Of a stretch of DNA of 15,724 nucleotides, positions 3,396-15,349 are shown in pieces. Source of the DNA: a bacterium (GTDB lineage Bacteria > SZUA-182 > DTGQ01); the NCBI GenBank assembly GCA_040752695.1, contig JBFMGO010000027.1, positions 40,907-56,630 on the forward strand. The letters run 5' to 3'. The first letter of the stretch is position 1, and every line of letters starts with the position of its first letter. Both the position numbers and the translations under genes were made by a program. The notes beneath the pieces were generated by a model. The model searched no databases. It was not told where the DNA came from and was given only the letters and a program-made list of their open reading frames with translations.

Positions 3396-3947
3396 ATGCA
3401 GTGGCTTAACTATGTGAAAGCGAATATAAGATGGGGAAAGAGAGAGAAACTGATCTTGAAGTGCGTCCTTTTCAGCGTTCCCTTATTCCTGCTTATTCAG
3501 TTTTACTTATTGCCTGCTATCGCAAACGTTAAGGGTATTGCAGAATCTATCCCGAAAAGAAAACAAGACCTGAAAGAGCTGCGGAAATTACGGAACGAGT
3601 TTCTGGATTTCCGTGAAAAAACGGCATGGGTAAACAAAACGCTCCAGGCAAGAGGTCCGGATTTTGAATTTCTCACCTTTATGGAGGAATTGGCCAAGAA
3701 ATGTAAGATCGAGAGTAAGATCATCTCCATGCGGCCAGTAAACCACCCTTCTTTGCTGCCAAATGAAAAGATCGTAGAGATAAACATAGACGGCCTGATA
3801 ACCGACGAGTTGACAAGGTATCTTTATGAAATCGAAAATTCGTCAAAGCTCCTCTTCATAAAAAAAACAACCATCCGTTCAAACTTTGGCCCTAAAAAAA
3901 CACTGGATGTCTCTCTTCAGGTTTCAACCTTAACCGATAAAATTTAA
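3396..3947 (+). CDS. gspM: Type II secretion GspM / PilO-like inner-membrane protein
   Basis: REKxIL motif before a single TM helix, then a coiled coil and a ferredoxin-like C-domain pattern (LTRYLYEIENS..LLFIKK..LDVSLQVST); 183 aa. Confidence 0.65.
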   Translation: MQWLNYVKANIRWGKREKLILKCVLFSVPLFLLIQFYLLPAIANVKGIAESIPKRKQDLKELRKLRNEFLDFREKTAWVNKTLQARGPDFEFLTFMEELAKKCKIESKIISMRPVNHPSLLPNEKIVEINIDGLITDELTRYLYEIENSSKLLFIKKTTIRSNFGPKKTLDVSLQVSTLTDKI

Positions 3948-7531: not shown

Positions 7532-8935
7532 CGTATAAAGAAGCTTTCCCAAAGTAAGGAGAAGAAACCAGCGAGAAATTTTCGCCGAGCTCTCCTGGTG
7601 GGGCATCTTTATCCTGGACGTCTTTCACCTGTCCTCAATGTTTCTTCCCACCCCTTTTTTTGAGCCGGCAGCCACAAAAGTCCTCCACATCCCAGCCATT
7701 TTCCGGAAAAGGAATTGGTAATGATATAAAAGTAATAGCGATAGTATATTTATATCCTCAAGATTTAAAAATCGATCGATTAATTTTTTATATCATCATG
7801 ATGTATAAAAAATTACATATTTTCATCATCAAGATATATATAATGGGTACTCTGTCATTTGTTATAGCCTGCTCTTTTACTGAGATGAATTGGGATTGCT
7901 GATGGTCTGAGAGAGGGGGAGGGCGCGAGAGCGGCCCTCGTTTCTGGTCTATTTAATCTGCAAGCCGTTCATATTCTCTGCCATTCCGTTGCCAATCCAG
8001 TTGTTAATTCATTGACTTCATTATTATTATTTGTCAAAATCCGGTGATGGGAATTATTTGCTGCTCGATCTACCTTTTATGGAGAGGGCCAGGAAGAGCC
8101 TGTTTGATTTTCAGACGAACGATGTTCTATAATTACCCTTATATAGCTAATTATCTGAAGTAATAAGTAGTTAAATAGCAGATGTAAATCACTATAGAAA
8201 ATTAATAATTATAAAGGTTTAATTTTCTGATCTTTTTACCTTGAGATCACTTGGCAGCCAATTTAGAAACAGCAAATAAACAAGTTAGTCCTATTAAGCT
8301 CAGACGGAGGTTAACCGGTATCTTATTAATAATCAAAAAAACAGAGAGATAATCTTCTTAGTACAGGCCGTGTTAATACTACAGCGAGACGGGAACATTA
8401 CCAGTTTGTTACGGAGGGGGCTGGCTTAGACACTGCGCATTAAATACGCGACCAGATAGTGTGTAATAATCCTTCGCTCAGAATGATATTTAAAGTAGGC
8501 AAGGGTGAAGGTAACAAGGAGCGTAATGGATAAGGGGAGGATATCGTCTAATCTTATTAAGTTGAAGGCCCATGCCTTTTTATCGGGTTTGTGCCTTTTG
8601 TTCACCATAGCAGGCAGGACTTTTGTTTCCTGGGGCAAAGGGGGTGAAGGAAGTATTATAGATTTTTTTATCTTTACTCATGTAATTCTGTTTAGATCAG
8701 TGAGAATGGAGGTTAAAAGCTAGGGGAAATTACTGGTCTTACACCACTGCTTACCTGGGTTAAGCAGGGTCAAGGAATCCAGTTGTGCAACCTATTGGCT
8801 TATGGAGCAAAGCTGGCAGGTGAATGCACAAAGTTGATCCAAAGTTGATCTGGATATTTCGCTCTCTGCTGAAGGAGAGACGCAACTTGGGTTAAAGAAC
8901 TGATTGTGAATCTGTATGGTTAGAGAGGAGTAGTT

Positions 8936-9808
8936 ATGAAAAAGAAAAATAGTGTGTTATTATTTGTGTTTTTTTTCGTTATGAGTTCCTTCCTGGTTAC
9001 TGGAACTGCTCACGCCCAAACCTCAACAACAACTAATCCTTTATTAAGTCCCTTTCTCTTTTCAGGGGGAGGATTAGGGCACTTGAGCCCGTATTTACTC
9101 TATGGCCTTTTAGGCAATTCCACCGGTACACAAACTACCAGTAATTTTGGCTTTCCATACCCCTATATGGGTATGGGCGGCATGATGGGCATGGGTGGGT
9201 TAAATCCCTATCTCTACAGCGCATTATTGGGCAATCTGGGTACTACCGGCACGACCCCGACGACCACGGGGAGCCTGGGTTATCCCTATTCTCTCATGGG
9301 CGGCATGATGGGCATGGGTGGCTATGGCCGGCTGAATCCGTATTTATATAGTGGCTTGCTGGGCAATCTTGGTACTACCGGCACAACCGGCACGACCCCG
9401 ACGACCACGGGGAGCCTGGGTTATCCCTATTCTCTCATGGGCGGCATGATGGGCATGGGTGGCTATGGCCGATTGAATCCGTATCTGTATGGCGGACTGC
9501 TTGGAGGCTTGTTTGGCAGCACCACCACTACTCCCACCAGCGGCACATTTTCACCCTTTGGATATGGATATGGATATGGCGGCATGATGGGCGGCATGAT
9601 GGGTATGGGCGGCATGATGGGCGGATTATTTCCTTACCTTTACAGCGGCTTACTGAACCCCCTTACTTCAACAACAACTGTTGCTCCGGCAACGACTGCT
9701 CCTGTCGCGCCAATCGTTACTCCTGTGCCCCCAACAGTTGCTGCTCCGGCGGCAACCATTGTACCGGCGACCACGGTAGTACCTGTAGCTACAGCACTTG
9801 CATTATAA
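8936..9808 (+). CDS. Secreted low-complexity Gly/Met/Tyr/Thr/Pro-rich repeat protein of unknown function
   Basis: GAGGAG SD; Sec signal peptide MKKKN...TAHA|Q; repeats of LxPYLYxGLLG, T-rich spacer and MGGMMGMGG with synonymous divergence between copies; terminator downstream. Confidence 0.9.
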   Translation: MKKKNSVLLFVFFFVMSSFLVTGTAHAQTSTTTNPLLSPFLFSGGGLGHLSPYLLYGLLGNSTGTQTTSNFGFPYPYMGMGGMMGMGGLNPYLYSALLGNLGTTGTTPTTTGSLGYPYSLMGGMMGMGGYGRLNPYLYSGLLGNLGTTGTTGTTPTTTGSLGYPYSLMGGMMGMGGYGRLNPYLYGGLLGGLFGSTTTTPTSGTFSPFGYGYGYGGMMGGMMGMGGMMGGLFPYLYSGLLNPLTSTTTVAPATTAPVAPIVTPVPPTVAAPAATIVPATTVVPVATALAL

Positions 9809-9878
9809 TACCGCTCTTTTTTAACGTATTATAAAATAATATGTTTTCCTTATAATATATAAAGGTTTTAAAGATTTT

Positions 9879-9930
9879 CTCTCACTTCTCTCCTTGAACA
9901 GGAGAGAAGTGAGAGCCTGTTTTTGCTTTT
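9879..9930 (+). terminator. Probable intrinsic terminator
   Basis: 16-bp perfect stem ctctcacttctctcct-tgaac-aggagagaagtgagag followed by cctgtttttgctttt, 70 nt after the stop codon. Confidence 0.75.
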
Positions 9931-10498
9931 AATGCCGATTTTCCGTACCGGCGTTCAATTATTTTAGATTCTGTAACTCGTTAGTCTCTTAGCCATTTTT
10001 TAGCCGTTTAAGCCAGTTGTCATTTAAAGCGATTTTTTGCATGATCTTGTTAAGCGATTTTAAAGCTACCTTTGGTTGATGAGCGGGAATTTTGTTTTTT
10101 TCAGGAAAAGATTCAAAGCTCTTCATTGGGGTTTCCTCTTTGTTTTGCTTAATCAAGTTTTTTTCTCTTTTCTATATCATGTAGAGATGACAGCGCTTGT
10201 GGCTTATTCTGGGGGTGATTTTATTGCCACGGGAAGACTGACTCATTACAGGATACTTTTCTTGCCCAATTTTTCCTCGTAATAATAGAGAAGAGGTGAA
10301 AGAGGGGGGGCGTTCTTCTTCAGGCCTGCCAGGAGGTATTGGCACCATTTTTTTCGATATACATTTTGAAAAACGGGATTACATATCTTTTTATAAAAAG
10401 AGAAAAATATTGTTATAAGTAAATCCCAGGATTGCAATTATTTTCAAAAAGTACTAAAATAAAAATGATTAAGGCCGAATTTTTACCAGACATTTCTT

Positions 10499-10622
10499 CC
10501 TCATTCATGGAAATACAGCTTCGTTCGTGGGAATATAGCTTCGTTCATGGAAAGATAGCTTCGTTCGTGGGAATATAGCTTCGTCTTATTTTTGAGCTTT
10601 GCCTCATTCGTAAGGTACAGCT
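10499..10622. repeat. 20-bp tandem repeat x4 (ABAB pattern) plus two degenerate copies
   Basis: tcattcatggaaatacagct / tcgttcgtgggaatatagct / tcgttcatggaaagatagct / tcgttcgtgggaatatagct; degenerate tcgtcttatttttgagct and tcattcgtaaggtacagct. Confidence 0.9.
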
Positions 10623-10785
10623 ATCTCACGTATCCTTATCGTCCAAGCATCACGTTTATAAACCGTAAAAATGATAAAACTGCAAGAAGGGGGGGGGTTA
10701 AAAATTCGTATATGTCTTTTACCAGTACTCTACCATAATATAAAGAATATAATTTGCGGAATAATCCCAATAAGGAGTCAGGATA

Positions 10786-13530
10786 ATGAAAGGAGAGATG
10801 ATGGAGAGTAAAAGAGAGAGAATTACGAAAAGTCTTGTTGTTTTTCTATTTTTTAGCTTATTATTGGCAGGGACATTGCCGGGTTCTTATGCTCAAACCC
10901 CTGTCCTTTATGCTGCCGGTGGAGAGGTTACTGTTTCCCTATCGCCGGTTATCACAACAACAGATCCCGCTCTATATCCTCCCCAGGAAGAGGTGCCGGT
11001 ATCTCAGATTATCACGGTTACCTTTAGTCAGGATATGGACGTGGAAACAACCCGTTCCGCTTTTGCCTTATATCAGCTTTCTGAAGGTGCCGTTCTGCAG
11101 GTTGAAGGAGTTTGCAGCGTTGAAGGTAAAGTTCTTACCTTTGCGCCTTCGACTCCCCTGGAAGTGGGTTCCATCTATCAGGTCACCCTGAACCAGAGCG
11201 CTACGGATATAAATGGCCAGAACCTGCAAAATGGCTCTTTGGAGGGAGGCGATATCCGATGGTATTTCGTCACGGCAGCCGACACTCTCTCTCCGGAAAT
11301 TACTGATTGCTCGCCAGCTTCGGAAGGTGTGGATGTTTCTCCGGGTACTTCCATCACATTTCACGTTCGGGACAATAATGCAGGTGTTAACCCGGATTCT
11401 GTTGTTTTGACAATTAATGGTGAGCAGGTGATCCCTTCCCTTTCCCCGATGTCAAAGACAGACCTTCAGGTTACCTATCTCCCTGCAACTCCCTTCAGTG
11501 ATGGAGAAGTGGTTACCGTCTCCATCCAGGCCAGGGATTTTGTGGATAATGCAGTAGAGTATTCCTACTCGTTCACCATCGCCCGCAGGATGGATCAATT
11601 CTGGAGCCGGGTGATGGGGTTTGACCTTACAACCATCATCGCCATGGCTGTTGACAGTCAGGATCATCTCTGGACGGTTATGCAGCAAGGACCCGATCAA
11701 GAGCCAGATTGCAGCGGTGGAATCGTAATGTTCGACGGCAGCTACATTCGTTTTCCTCTTGATACCTTGAGTGAGCTTTGCAGCATTAAAGCCACAGCCA
11801 TAGCTGTTGACAGTCAGGATAATGTATGGATTGGCCTGGCCGCAGGCAGTGAGCCGGAAGCTGATCCTAATACCATTCCAAAGCTGGCCAAATTCGATGG
11901 AGATACCTGGACCCTTTACAGCGCCACGGCCCTCGATGTTCCCCCTGAGGAAGAAATCAATGAGATGGCTGTTGACTCTCAGGATCATGTCTGGATGGCT
12001 ACCGCTCAAAGCGGGGTCGTTGAGTTCTATGATGGTTCGAGCCATCACCGGGGACTTGAAGATAATACCCTGGTCAGGGCTGTCACCATTGACGGCAATG
12101 GCGACGTCTGGGCCGGGACGGTACCGTTTGGCGTCATGAAATTGCACGATTCGGTATGGGAGCAGTATTTTTACTCTATCCGTGCCAAAGATCCGATTGA
12201 TTTCACGGTTAATGATCTGGCTGTTGATGACAATGGCAAGGTATGGGTAGCGACGAATGCGGGACTCCTGCAACTGGTTCCGGATGCCGGTACCGGCGAT
12301 CCTCAATGGGTGCACTTTATCCCGGGTGAATTTGTCAATACTGTGGCTGTAGACAGACGTTCAGGCTCTTTGTGGGTTGGAACGAAAGATGGACTTCTCA
12401 GGTTCGATGGTGAGTCGAACTGGGTGAATTATTCCACAGAGGAGTCATACTATCCTCTCTCGACCGAGAGCATCACTCACATTGCCGTAAATCCCAATAC
12501 AAAGCACTACGAAATCTGGGTTGCCAGCAGTACATCTTTGGCCAGGAGAGATGAAAACTGCCCCCGGGTTGCCTCTACCTCACCGCTGGACGGAGCCACG
12601 GATGTATCGAAAAATGCTCCGGTTAAGATAACTTTTTCAGAAACTGTAGAGGCTCTTGATCAGCAGAACCCCACCGGATTTTTCAGTCTGTATGACTCTC
12701 AAAACGTGCCTGTTTCGGGAAACGCCGTCTTTGCTGCTAAAAATATCCTGACCTTTACCCCCTCATCACCTCTGAAAGAGATGGAAACCTATACCATAAA
12801 GGTTACCCCGCAAATCCAGGATCTGACCGGCAACGCGTTCGATGTTGACGGAGATGGCCTGGGTGCAGAAGGAGATGATGTATTCTTTGCCAGCTTCAGG
12901 GTGGAGAATGAGAAAGTGCCACCTCAAATTGTATCCACATCACCACAGAACGGTGTTAAGAACGTATCAAAGAATACGACGGTTAAAATAACCTTCAATG
13001 AGGGTATGGACCATGATTCTGCCGCTTCTTTTGGTTTGTATGATCCAAATCTTGTGGCTGTTTCAGGGAACACCGTCATTGATGGAAATGTTTTGACCTT
13101 TACTCCCTCATCTCCTTTGGAAGAAGGTAAAACCTACACGCTCGAAGCCGGCCGTGAAATGAAGGATCTTGCAGGTAACAGGCTCGATGGAGACAAAGAC
13201 GGCGTGGGAGGAGAAGAAGAGGATACATTCTCCGCCAGCTTCACAGTGCAGGAACAGACAGTACAGCCGTCATATAATGGTGGATGGATGTGGCCGTATA
13301 CGGGTGGATGGAGTGGCATAGGGTGGCTCCCGGGTACCTACACCGGTTTTTATGGCGGTGGCGTAACCGGCCCATTTATGCCGTATAGTTATATGCTGCA
13401 ATGGCCCTGGTATCCTTTTAGCCAAAGCAGCTTCAATATATTCCCTCAAACTCAGCTTATCGGCCTCCAGGGAATGAACAACACGTATCTCCGGAATTCA
13501 TTATTAGCGTTTGGATGGACCTTGTATTAA
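10786..13530 (+). CDS. Secreted multidomain protein: Ig-like (Big_5/SbsA-type) x2, beta-propeller, Ig-like x2, aromatic low-complexity tail
   Basis: Signal peptide ...LPGSYA|QT. Big_5 patterns (TSPxDGAxxVS, ITFSE, LTFTPSSPL, DLxGN) at about 10945-11274, 12559-12903 and 12919-13251, with a related Ig-like domain at about 11281-11583. Repeated [IM]AVDxxxxxWxxT blades (Reg_prop-like) at about 11590-12546. The start could also be 10798 or 10801. Confidence 0.88.
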   Translation: MKGEMMESKRERITKSLVVFLFFSLLLAGTLPGSYAQTPVLYAAGGEVTVSLSPVITTTDPALYPPQEEVPVSQIITVTFSQDMDVETTRSAFALYQLSEGAVLQVEGVCSVEGKVLTFAPSTPLEVGSIYQVTLNQSATDINGQNLQNGSLEGGDIRWYFVTAADTLSPEITDCSPASEGVDVSPGTSITFHVRDNNAGVNPDSVVLTINGEQVIPSLSPMSKTDLQVTYLPATPFSDGEVVTVSIQARDFVDNAVEYSYSFTIARRMDQFWSRVMGFDLTTIIAMAVDSQDHLWTVMQQGPDQEPDCSGGIVMFDGSYIRFPLDTLSELCSIKATAIAVDSQDNVWIGLAAGSEPEADPNTIPKLAKFDGDTWTLYSATALDVPPEEEINEMAVDSQDHVWMATAQSGVVEFYDGSSHHRGLEDNTLVRAVTIDGNGDVWAGTVPFGVMKLHDSVWEQYFYSIRAKDPIDFTVNDLAVDDNGKVWVATNAGLLQLVPDAGTGDPQWVHFIPGEFVNTVAVDRRSGSLWVGTKDGLLRFDGESNWVNYSTEESYYPLSTESITHIAVNPNTKHYEIWVASSTSLARRDENCPRVASTSPLDGATDVSKNAPVKITFSETVEALDQQNPTGFFSLYDSQNVPVSGNAVFAAKNILTFTPSSPLKEMETYTIKVTPQIQDLTGNAFDVDGDGLGAEGDDVFFASFRVENEKVPPQIVSTSPQNGVKNVSKNTTVKITFNEGMDHDSAASFGLYDPNLVAVSGNTVIDGNVLTFTPSSPLEEGKTYTLEAGREMKDLAGNRLDGDKDGVGGEEEDTFSASFTVQEQTVQPSYNGGWMWPYTGGWSGIGWLPGTYTGFYGGGVTGPFMPYSYMLQWPWYPFSQSSFNIFPQTQLIGLQGMNNTYLRNSLLAFGWTLY

Positions 13531-13531
13531 A

Positions 13532-13562
13532 TGTGCATGATTTAATTATTGTGCATGATTTA
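13532..13562. repeat. 13-bp direct repeat, 18-bp period
   Basis: tgtgcatgattta at 13532-13544 and 13550-13562. Confidence 0.7.
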
Positions 13563-13589
13563 CGGTAATCAATTTTAACCTTTTGGAAT

Positions 13590-13654
13590 AAAAAACCGGG
13601 CTCCCTGAAGATAAGCCCAAGGGAAAGCTTTCTTCAGGGAGCCCGGTTTTTTTT
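13590..13654. terminator. Bidirectional intrinsic terminator between convergent genes
   Basis: A6-ccgggctccctgaaga ... tcttcagggagcccgg-T8: 16-bp stem with a U-tract on both strands. Confidence 0.92.
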
Positions 13655-13724
13655 GCCCCTGACTGAATAAATGACCGCGTATTTCTCGCGGCCAATGCTA
13701 CTAATAACTAAGGCCAGAGGATAC

Positions 13725-15221
13725 TTAATAAGGCAGTGGGTGGGCAAGATTGAATGTTCCCTCATCCAGTAATTGGCCCAGGCTGTCTTTCAGGCTGTAT
13801 TTCCCGTCTACCAGGAATTGGCCTGCCCAGATGCACCAGACGCCTGGCGGACACAGGCTATTGCTGGCTGTGCCGGTAAAATCGGCAGTGTAATTTCCGT
13901 TGTTAAATCCGGCCTGAAAGGAGATAGGGCTTGAGCCTCCGGTCGGTGTATAGTGAAAGTTCATCAAATATCCCTGTCCCAGATCATACGGAGAGTCAGC
14001 CATCTCAACGGTTTGATTTTCCCGGTCAATAGTTAGTTTCCCTCCGCTGGCCGGGTTGTTCTGGCTTTGCCACGCTCCTTCCATTTTAATGGGTGCAGGA
14101 GCTGCCTTCACAATGGGGTCTAGACAGGAGGGCATAGTCAGATAACTTTTGAAGATGCACAGGGCATCTGCAGGAGTAACAGAGCCGTCCTGGTTTACAT
14201 CAGCACAATCTGAACAGGAACCGAGTTTCAGGTAGCATCGAAAGGCAATCAAAGCATCTTCCGGGGTTAATTTTCCATCTGCGTTAAGATCACCCTCCTG
14301 GCAGTGAGCGATACAGATGCACCCCGGGCTTGAGGAAAAAGAGGCCAGGCTGCCTCGGAGATTCTCCAATTGCAGGGTGTAACATCGGCTCTCCTGTACT
14401 GTCTGCTCCGCCTCTGCCGGTTTACATTCCCCTCTGAAATAGGCCCATTCTTCGCATTCACTCCCATTACTGAAAATACAGACCCCGTATTGATTCCCCT
14501 CTGCGTCTTTTCTTATTTCCAGCCTGCCTCCCTGGTTTATGCAATAAACAGAGGCAGGATTAGCGATGCCAACCCCCTGCTGCTCAAGACTTTCCCGGGC
14601 ATTCTCCGTGTTTCCCTGTGTATTCTCGGTGCCTTGCGGCACATTCCCAGGGCTTTGCGGCATATCCTCCTCTTCCCCCCGCATCTGGCTGTCCTCCTCT
14701 TTTGCCTTAAAGTTCAACCAAACCAGGTATCCGCTCGCTCCTTTGGGAATGGTACGATCGGATGAGACACCAGCTATACTAACCCTGCCGGGAGCAATCG
14801 GCGTAACCTCAGGCGAAGCGGAGGGACCGGCCAGATCACCCGGATCAAAGCCCAAAAACTCCAACGCCTGTTCCGGATAAGTGACATCAAAGCCGAAGGT
14901 ATCGACTTGACAGGGTGCATGCTGAATCCTCACCGCAACCCGAACATTTTCACCTGTTCTCGCCCTGACTCCTTCGATATCCAATGCTCCTGAATCACTC
15001 TCAAGGCATTGGGAAGCAGGGAGATAGGAGCTTTTTCCATCGATAGTACCAGGGACATTGGTGAATAGAGGGCTCTCCTTCACGTATACCGCCCCCTCGA
15101 ATACGGCTTTGGCTCCAGCCAGAGGGACATGAAAGGCAAGTGATGCCACTAGGACGGCCAAAATGCAACTTCCGAGGACTGATCCTCCCGATACCTTTAA
15201 TCTTGCTTTGTCTTGTTTCAT
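13725..15221 (-). CDS. Secreted cohesin-, DUF333- and dockerin-domain protein
   Basis: Signal peptide (...VPLAGA|KA); cohesin-like GENVRVAVRI...FGFDVTYP...L...GDL...GYLVWLNFKA; DUF333 signature IANPASVYC..QGG...GVC..C EEWAYFRGEC; dockerin duplicated Ca-loops GDLNADGKLTPEDA / ADVNQDGSVTPADA; unassigned beta-rich C-domain. Confidence 0.87.
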   Translation of the reverse strand: MKQDKARLKVSGGSVLGSCILAVLVASLAFHVPLAGAKAVFEGAVYVKESPLFTNVPGTIDGKSSYLPASQCLESDSGALDIEGVRARTGENVRVAVRIQHAPCQVDTFGFDVTYPEQALEFLGFDPGDLAGPSASPEVTPIAPGRVSIAGVSSDRTIPKGASGYLVWLNFKAKEEDSQMRGEEEDMPQSPGNVPQGTENTQGNTENARESLEQQGVGIANPASVYCINQGGRLEIRKDAEGNQYGVCIFSNGSECEEWAYFRGECKPAEAEQTVQESRCYTLQLENLRGSLASFSSSPGCICIAHCQEGDLNADGKLTPEDALIAFRCYLKLGSCSDCADVNQDGSVTPADALCIFKSYLTMPSCLDPIVKAAPAPIKMEGAWQSQNNPASGGKLTIDRENQTVEMADSPYDLGQGYLMNFHYTPTGGSSPISFQAGFNNGNYTADFTGTASNSLCPPGVWCIWAGQFLVDGKYSLKDSLGQLLDEGTFNLAHPLPY

Positions 15222-15259
15222 TGTTTACCCCCCTTTTGATTGAGTTTTATAACCAGGAG

Positions 15260-15349
15260 GTTAACCTAGTTATCCAAGTTAATCAGGTTAACCAGGTTGT
15301 CCAAATTAACCAGGTTATCCAAGTTAAACAAGTTACCCAGGTTATCCAG
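15260..15349. repeat. 9-bp tandem repeat x10 (consensus GTTAWCCAR)
   Basis: gttaaccta gttatccaa gttaatcag gttaaccag gttgtccaa attaaccag gttatccaa gttaaacaa gttacccag gttatccag. Confidence 0.92.

Follow-up and report, generated by a model that had tools for sequence, protein, structure and literature searches.

CsgA of curli and FapC of Pseudomonas are exported repeat proteins with conserved units, a variable copy number and separate transcription. In squid, the M2 modules of suckerins are described as glycine-rich (GGY, GGLY), and glycine-rich suckerin peptides as forming hydrogels (PMC11931252). For the anammox surface protein Brosi_A1236, a disordered C-terminus of Thr/Ser/Gly-rich repeats has been reported to adhere and to phase-separate (PMC7482068). 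Non-cellulosomal cohesin and dockerin proteins are in turn described from anaerobic methanotrophic (ANME) archaea and Archaeoglobus, where their bearers are not thought to be cellulose degraders (PMC9012536). Here we analyze a stretch of 15,724 nucleotides (the window) from the bacterial assembly GCA_040752695.1 (contig JBFMGO010000027.1, order DTGQ01 of phylum SZUA-182), in which three neighboring genes recall parts of these systems: gene 1 encodes a charge-free repeat protein, gene 2 a multidomain protein with a charge-free aromatic tail and gene 3 a cohesin-dockerin protein.

The reading that we favor, and hold to be about evenly poised between right and wrong, is that genes 1 and 2 form a conserved pair with predicted export and belong to a self-associating envelope or matrix material that spans the order and consists of charge-free Gly/aromatic segments, with gene 3 unlinked to it. 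Gene 1 resembles CsgA and FapC in each of the traits named above. However, it shows no curlin family match, no confident beta-solenoid and a proline in every repeat, and CsgG-like matches in the source genome are partial only, with none on the window's contig. Brosi_A1236, likened by its description, offers the closest precedent in bacteria for what we propose the gene 2 tail to do; it is one S-layer protein, whereas about 150 charge-free aromatic proteins, many without a folded domain, are found here. None of the three proteins matched an SLH or S-layer family in Pfam.

The source genome (G000; 6.05 Mb in 239 contigs, the window being the end of contig C27) was compared with two genomes of the same genus (G001 and G002), with an order sample of 13 genomes and with 28 genomes from outside the order. 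Scans of the source genome were based on 4,995 non-overlapping open reading frames (ORFs). Signal peptides were called by visual inspection and with a home-made hydrophobicity rule in place of a trained predictor.

The gene 1 and gene 2 locus

The features of this part of the window are as follows.
8522..8549, plus strand: promoter motif of the extracytoplasmic function (ECF) sigma type, CGTAAY-N16/17-CG(T/C)C, 414 nucleotides (nt) before the gene 1 start
8936..9808, plus strand: gene 1, a 290-residue charge-free repeat protein (ORF, sequence reading), with a predicted signal peptide (residues 1-27), a repeat region (28-243) and a Pro/Thr/Ala/Val tail (244-290)
9879..9915, plus strand: intrinsic-terminator-like hairpin after gene 1 (-28.0 kcal/mol)
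10432..10460, plus strand: sigma-70-like promoter site of gene 2, TTGCAA-17-TAAAAT
10786..13530, plus strand: gene 2, 914 residues, with a predicted signal peptide, Big_5 Ig-like domains, a Reg_prop beta-propeller and a charge-free aromatic tail
13261..13527, plus strand: the charge-free G/Y/P/W tail of gene 2, residues 826-914
13590..13653, no strand: bidirectional terminator-like hairpin where genes 2 and 3 converge, made of an A-run, a perfect inverted repeat and a T-run (-43.7 kcal/mol)

A preliminary description of the window had placed three ORFs with signal peptides at 8936-9808 (plus), 10786-13530 (plus) and 13725-15221 (minus); the three frames were recovered at these places, and their signal-like N-termini were confirmed by eye and by the hydrophobicity rule. 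The mature part of gene 1 carries 2 charged residues in 263 and consists largely of G (22%), T (16%), L (13%), P (10%), Y (8%) and M (8%). Its repeat region holds five conserved Gly/Met/Tyr/Pro units of the form G-x-L-[NSF]-P-Y-L-[YL]-x-[GA]-L-L with Thr-rich spacers between them. Thus, the earlier portrayal of gene 1 as an uncharged polymer is borne out by its composition, while the idea of a merely biased composition does not survive the five conserved units. AlphaFold gave a mean predicted local distance difference test (pLDDT) value of 45 and no fold, which amounts to predicted disorder. Gene 1 matched 0 Pfam families at E 0.1 and no NCBIfam family, a homologue search returned 2 proteins, and an atlas look-up yielded no usable feature match, only weak structure rows that derive from the low-confidence model.

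Gene 1 was found at one locus in 11 of the 13 genomes of the order and in 0/28 outside it. Its length ranges from 107 to 309 residues across relatives, as set by the repeat number. Identity of the mature part within the genus is 68-79%, at 56-65 synonymous codon changes, and exceeds that of the folded part of gene 2 (56-58%).

For gene 2, a Pfam scan returned four Big_5 stretches and Reg_prop propeller repeats, and a single one of the 89 tail residues is charged (composition G 17%, Y 10%, P 9%, W 8%), in agreement with the Ig-like domains, propeller and uncharged tail described before. The tail is 30-33% identical to those of orthologues, and a comparable uncharged aromatic tail was present in 4/4 complete orthologues seen. 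Set against the 68-79% identity of gene 1, a tail that keeps its composition at 30-33% identity argues that sequence is under selection in gene 1 and composition in the gene 2 tail. Full-length gene 2 orthologues occur in G001, G002 and three metagenome contigs, with partial matches only elsewhere; a scan of the genome contigs with gene 2 as the query detected no relative. Gene 2 of the window has two C-terminal Big_5 domains (12553-13251) where both same-genus orthologues have one, which marks a recent domain duplication. An intergenic tandem repeat with a 20-nt unit in 4.1 copies precedes gene 2 at 10504-10584.

Gene 1 lies directly 5' of gene 2 in 5/5 related loci (G001, G002, L167, L168 and L169), equal to 4 independent loci as L169 shares ~96% DNA identity with G001. 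The sigma-70-like site of gene 2 is kept in five of the six intergenic regions between the two genes, and a hairpin with a T-run follows gene 1 at the matching place in G001 and G002 (by eye). Given the terminator-like hairpins, after gene 1 and between genes 2 and 3, and gene 2's own sigma-70-like site, genes 1, 2 and 3 are likely three transcription units, as the preliminary description had cautioned. Beyond gene 2, all four loci with a visible next gene continue with a sigma-54-type regulator, an HD-domain gene and a convergent M4-type protease gene, and GGLY genes (see below) lie further on past the protease gene where the contig extends. We tried to join the end of the window's contig to a contig bearing the regulator and a GGLY cluster; the two do not overlap, and other genes precede the regulator there. 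The comparison of loci argues that gene 1 is old, that gene 2 joined it in this genus and that gene 3 is a local neighbor.

Two families of gene 1 loci, f1 and f2, can be distinguished. In G003 and G004, gene 1 is flanked by the lpx operon and the regulator, and gene 2 is missing; in the second family (f2), it is divergent from type IV pilus genes in five genomes (labels by eye). The f2 loci L112-L116 also share a conserved 243-residue gene opposite gene 1, followed by pilB/pilT/pilC/pilS/pilR-like genes, in 5/5 cases (by eye). A repeat core that is conserved in sequence while its copy number varies (107-309 residues) would also fit a multi-core precursor cut by extracellular proteases into short conserved peptides acting as signals or modified peptides, and in f1 an M4-type protease gene does lie two to three genes from gene 1, with a subtilase further on in G001. 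We regard this explanation as decidedly improbable: no dibasic or other fixed cleavage site is visible between the repeats, no modifying enzyme was recognized beside gene 1 in the loci read, and the f2 neighbors are type IV pilus genes, among which no protease was recognized.

Charge-free exported proteins and the GGLY-barrel family

Charge-free aromatic segments were detected on 151 of the 4,995 ORFs of the source genome, distributed over 115/992 signal-like proteins, 21/914 other membrane proteins and 15/3,089 proteins without a hydrophobic helix. The 151 include gene 3, a false positive of the filter via its folded C-terminal domain, which was taken out before the neighbor and promoter counts reported below. 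As a control, lpxA loci from other bacteria (79 loci, 1.24 Mb, with a bias to housekeeping genes) gave 4/1,122 ORFs and 0/144 signal-like proteins. The proteome check for further secreted uncharged aromatic proteins, suggested in the preliminary description, has in this way turned up many, and genes 1 and 2 indicate that charge-free exported proteins form a set spanning the order.

The segment is C-terminal in 27 proteins and N-terminal in 44, while 47 proteins are made mostly of segments. Large proteins with Ig, HYR or protease domains, subtilases among them, have tails of this kind as well. This placement at chain ends, together with tails that keep composition and not sequence and with seven secretins encoded in the source genome (on C46, C77, C5, C14 (two), C97 and C7), would be in line with segments that serve as anchors or sorting tags to the outer membrane, a surface polysaccharide or a secretin, and that form no bulk material. 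Such a role seems unlikely to us, since 47 proteins are mostly segment, gene 1 brings no folded cargo, and an anchor would need neither 216 GGLYG units in 36 proteins nor a variable repeat number. The secretin genes themselves lie in pilus-, type II secretion- and Tad-like clusters, one of them gsp-like (read by eye).

One family of the source genome comprises 25 proteins that share a C-terminal domain of 115 residues, and in 18 of them at least three G(G)LYG repeats precede it. Stretches of this family and of a second paralogue family are listed here.
G000, C94:8647-14487 (L120-L122) and 24 other stretches: (GGLY)n-barrel proteins, often with a Val/Ala/Pro/Thr tract
G000, C27:25912-26688 and C27:27821-28381: examples of the PPYNxLWPxWSP family

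The GGLYG pentapeptide occurs 216 times across 36 proteins of the source genome. The C-terminal domain gave 4-41 matches per genome in 13/13 genomes of the order and none in the 28 outside, so that the family marks one order; a pattern coding for YGGLYGGLYG was likewise present in 13/13 genomes of the order and 0/7 outside, with 0 hits for a reversed control. The domain is predicted to fold as an 8-stranded barrel (pLDDT 91) and superimposes on a designed barrel (Z 14.1, root-mean-square deviation (rmsd) 2.2, 105 aligned) and on zebavidin (Z 12.1, rmsd 2.3, 98 aligned). The model thereby places it with avidin, OmpA and designed 8-stranded barrels. In contrast to avidin and OmpA, it has no Pfam family in the six members scanned and no related solved sequence, and its outer faces are rich in Thr/Ser/Asn by eye, which suggests a soluble barrel. 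At E 0.001, 206 cluster representatives match the domain, the distant ones being mostly small lipoprotein-like proteins. In G007 (C12:72947-89095) a single reading frame of a GGLY-barrel cluster contains up to five matches to the barrel.

The second paralogue family comprises 19 genes in the source genome that encode predicted exported, nearly charge-free proteins of ~200 residues with a PPYNxLWPxWSP motif. In some relatives (P0003 and P0055) the PPYN motif is fused to the barrel, and P0003 has no Pfam or NCBIfam match. No published description of these charge-free and barrel families was found in a search that left most subscription papers and bioRxiv supplements outside its reach.

The GGLY tetrapeptide of suckerins thus recurs in long tandem runs of the barrel family, while the gene 1 repeat is a different one. 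Unlike the animal proteins, the bacterial chains have an avidin-like barrel at their C-terminus and, in many cases, a Val/Ala/Pro/Thr tract, and alternating Ala/His-rich or Pro-flanked M1 modules, which accompany M2 modules in suckerins, were not seen by eye in the GGLY sequences; we take the likeness to be convergent. With gene 1 present as a single copy, its earlier casting as the bulk polymer has become doubtful, and the 25-member barrel family is the better candidate.

Sulfur globule proteins are rich in glycine and tyrosine. SgpA/B/C have been described as hydrophobic envelope proteins of sulfur globules (PMC10609205), and they share with the present proteins the outline of a signal peptide followed by a hydrophobic low-complexity chain. 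A Sec signal by itself ends in the periplasm, so the charge-free proteins might remain there and coat a storage inclusion. This possibility, which we also rate as improbable, has to contend with motifs that differ from those of Sgp, far larger families and a folded barrel partner. PF17228 had no match in gene 1 (full Pfam scan) or in the source genome, although no control genome matched it either, and the best dsrA hit in the source genome scored 27 bits against a cut-off of 393; no search for sox or sqr was made. Moreover, such tails are also found on the large Ig, HYR and protease proteins mentioned above, which are of a kind typical of surfaces.

Promoter motif and proposed assembly

The motif CGTAAY-N16/17-CG(T/C)C was found 203-774 nt upstream of gene 1 in 13/13 gene 1 loci, covering both families of loci. 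It fits the bipartite form of the general ECF sigma promoter consensus, with an AAC-like -35 element (reading TAAC or TAAT), a (CG)TC-like -10 element and a spacing of 16-17 nt. In Streptomyces, the promoters of sigma-E are described with conserved AAC and TC elements (PMC6767563). In the source genome, GTAAY-16/17-CGTC precedes 8/127 charge-free genes (gene 1 included), compared to 3/462 other signal-bearing and 3/1,895 remaining genes (p = 3.5e-4). A looser form precedes 12/127 charge-free genes, and 1 and 0 at wrong spacings. Outside the source genome, all 15 sites of G010 and five of the nine in G003 were inspected: 19 of these 20 sites have a downstream ORF, of which 17 are signal-like (by a looser rule) and 13 charge-free. 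The source genome has 11 sigma-70-family matches over the cut-off. A sigma-54 promoter before gene 1 was considered and rejected, the strict motif being present in 1/12 upstream regions, and no common upstream motif of the barrel and PPYN families was convincing beyond ribosome-binding sites. A second copy of the ECF-type motif lies on the minus strand of the window (8387-8413), facing a 1.6-kb gap away from gene 1 with no clear gene behind it.

The self-associating material that we favor draws on composition, conservation, distribution, synteny and the motif as observed, and on Sec export, gene 1 disorder and the barrel fold as predicted. In a working model, one ECF sigma factor would switch on gene 1 together with the other motif-preceded charge-free exported proteins. 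The products would be exported by Sec, with predicted signal cleavage, and could pass to the surface via the type II secretion system encoded in the source genome. There, Tyr/Phe/Trp/Met stickers within near-chargeless Gly/Thr/Ser spacers might give rise to a gel or a cross-beta network. The (GGLY)n-barrel family would supply the bulk, whereas gene 1, with its sequence-specific repeat, may nucleate or organize it. Tails like that of gene 2 would draw folded cargo (Ig/propeller proteins, proteases) in by composition instead of sequence. The cohesin-dockerin proteins would represent a separate tagging system, expanded in this genus, that meets the matrix only via the 7/50 members with a charge-free segment.

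Several observations weigh against this reading. The genes fabZ-lpxA-lpxI upstream in the window point to a two-membrane cell, and since Sec signals take a protein no further than the periplasm in such a cell, the extracellular location goes beyond what the signal peptides themselves provide. Gene 1 (Met-rich) and the gene 2 tail (Trp-rich) have no common sequence motif. Gene 1 was not found in two members of the order (G005 and G007), and the gene 1 loci of G003 and G004 lack gene 2, which was not seen either in the five f2 loci with flanks. The control loci favor housekeeping genes and the signal rule is crude. As for the promoter motif, its genome-wide count in the source genome is below that of a reversed control (18 vs 38), and one of the 13 charge-free hits outside (L190) lies within a coding frame, ~690 nt before a gene 2-like paralogue. 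The motif precedes 1/21 barrel-family genes, 0/16 PPYN-family genes and neither gene 2 nor gene 3; its absence from most of these means that the charge-free set is not one regulon.

A fuller picture can be offered tentatively, and we are doubtful that all of it holds: the sheath or matrix of this uncultured order would be a keratin- or suckerin-like material from dozens of paralogous GGLY repeat proteins with avidin-like barrels, gene 1 would act as its organizer under ECF control, tails would load enzymes and adhesins, and in this genus cohesin-dockerin chains would be attached via a few adaptors. If these proteins do assemble, bacteria would have a structural material whose kind is known chiefly from animals, with an expanded gene family as its source in place of one amyloid or S-layer subunit, and the proteins would provide a natural library of sticker-spacer sequences along with a modular cargo tag. 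Among publications naming phylum SZUA-182, those consulted deal with its metabolism and abundance and do not bring it up in connection with envelope biology.

Gene 3 and the cohesin-dockerin proteins

Gene 3 and its domains occupy the minus strand next to gene 2.
13725..15221, minus strand: gene 3, 498 residues, with a cohesin (DUF333 insert), a dockerin and a C-terminal domain; not a conserved member of the locus
14307..15017, minus strand: cohesin, residues 69-305, split by an insert of ~97 residues (alignment with 17 paralogues)
14427..14570, minus strand: DUF333, residues 218-265, in a cohesin loop (Pfam E 2.5e-23)
14118..14303, minus strand: cysteine-rich dockerin, residues 307-368, directly after the cohesin
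13734..14105, minus strand: C-terminal domain (~125 residues), residues 373-496, without a Pfam family

The cohesin matches PF00963 with 29.9 bits (cut-off 24.1), and its profile matches solved cohesins at E 3e-9. The dockerin matches PF00404 with 25.0 bits (cut-off 22.9) and dockerins of the PDB at E 1.8e-6, and it has two D-x-N-x-D-G loops, forming the duplicated Ca-binding loop-helix typical of dockerins. An alignment of 18 dockerins shows up to six cysteines, three of them invariant. Both modules named in the preliminary description are therefore present; it had overlooked the DUF333 insert and the C-terminal domain. The affected cohesin loop, which measures 5-8 residues in the 17 paralogues, holds DUF333 and an acidic linker in gene 3, and the DUF333 insert is also found in both gene 3 orthologues. 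In other proteins, DUF333 often occurs on one chain with PF09394, PF00079 or PF00050. These are families of protease inhibitors (chagasin I42, serpin and Kazal), a hint that DUF333 has a role connected with proteases and not that of its 'putative hemolysin' label. The C-terminal domain bears a weak likeness to the last two barrel strands of the GGLY family (HHalign probability 64%, 37 columns) and recurs on a charge-free protein behind the promoter motif. An intergenic tandem repeat with a 9-nt unit in 9.9 copies (15258-15348) lies before gene 3.

As described before, the three proteins have no SLH domain and no LPxTG motif, and a Tat motif is absent as well; the only lipobox-like sequence (LGSC, in gene 3) lies before the hydrophobic core and is missing from both orthologues. 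With one cohesin, no SLH and no LPxTG, gene 3 does not look like a scaffoldin, which would have several cohesins or an anchor; multi-cohesin proteins are present elsewhere in the source genome. There, 42 dockerin and 40 cohesin matches were counted, and 44 proteins have a dockerin, 31 a cohesin and 25 both, the latter being mostly fused units with almost no linker. Each genome of this genus has 26-41 cohesin matches, compared to 0-6 in the remaining 10 of the order. As in ANME and Archaeoglobus, cohesins and dockerins sit on varied exported proteins, and a few proteins combine several cohesins with one dockerin. In contrast to those archaea, 25 cohesin-dockerin proteins, most of them fused units, up to six dockerin cysteines and a DUF333 within the gene 3 cohesin are found here. 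By its domain content, gene 3 thus appears as an unusual member of the known non-cellulosomal cohesin-dockerin class. The dockerin-cohesin fusions of this lineage would form head-to-tail chains if their geometry blocks intrachain binding.

The preliminary description had proposed that the three genes build one dedicated scaffold, with gene 3 as the cross-linker of genes 1 and 2 via cohesin-dockerin pairs. All three proteins do look exported and non-catalytic and have orthologues in both same-genus genomes, and the C-terminal domain of gene 3 adds the weak link to the GGLY barrel and to a motif-preceded charge-free protein mentioned above. However, while the synteny of genes 1 and 2 held in relatives, that of gene 3 did not: it is next to gene 2 in 0/4 loci with a visible next gene, and its orthologues in G001 and G002 lie on other contigs amid unrelated genes that differ in each, which rules out a conserved three-gene locus. 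Genes 1 and 2 contain no cohesin or dockerin by Pfam or by lineage-specific hidden Markov models and so do not resemble cellulosome-type cargo, and gene 3 has no true charge-free tail. Cohesin/dockerin genes occupy 6/257 slots beside charge-free genes and 20/1,502 beside other signal-bearing genes, a difference that is not significant (p = 0.26), and gene 1 persists in genomes with 0-5 cohesin matches. The scaffold model is very unlikely and largely refuted on genomic grounds, and the three-gene version first proposed, with gene 3 as its cross-linker, should be dropped; gene 3 probably landed beside genes 1 and 2 by rearrangement. A charge-free segment is also present on 7/50 cohesin/dockerin proteins of the source genome, gene 3 not among them, and two cohesin/dockerin proteins lie behind the motif. 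The charge-free set and the cohesin-dockerin system may meet in such proteins, though not through gene 3.

A further dockerin is found at the C-terminus of a 1,324-residue protein with 23 CxxCH motifs (G000, C83:13749-17723). At least three CxxCH motifs occur in 49/4,995 ORFs of the source genome, with a maximum of 28. No known RNA or riboswitch matched the window at the Rfam gathering score, and as a candidate at gene 1 such an element was discarded, since three Rfam matches across 8 gene 1 loci were all at chance level. The named record with the closest LpxA (69%) matches the window in gene order and is assigned to phylum SZUA-182, order DTGQ01 (PMC10491686). Between a TPR gene and fabZ-lpxA-lpxI, the window also contains a lone GspM-like gene (3396-3947; weak NCBIfam match, E 8e-4); L016 and G004 show this gene order too, and in G003 the gene precedes fabZ.

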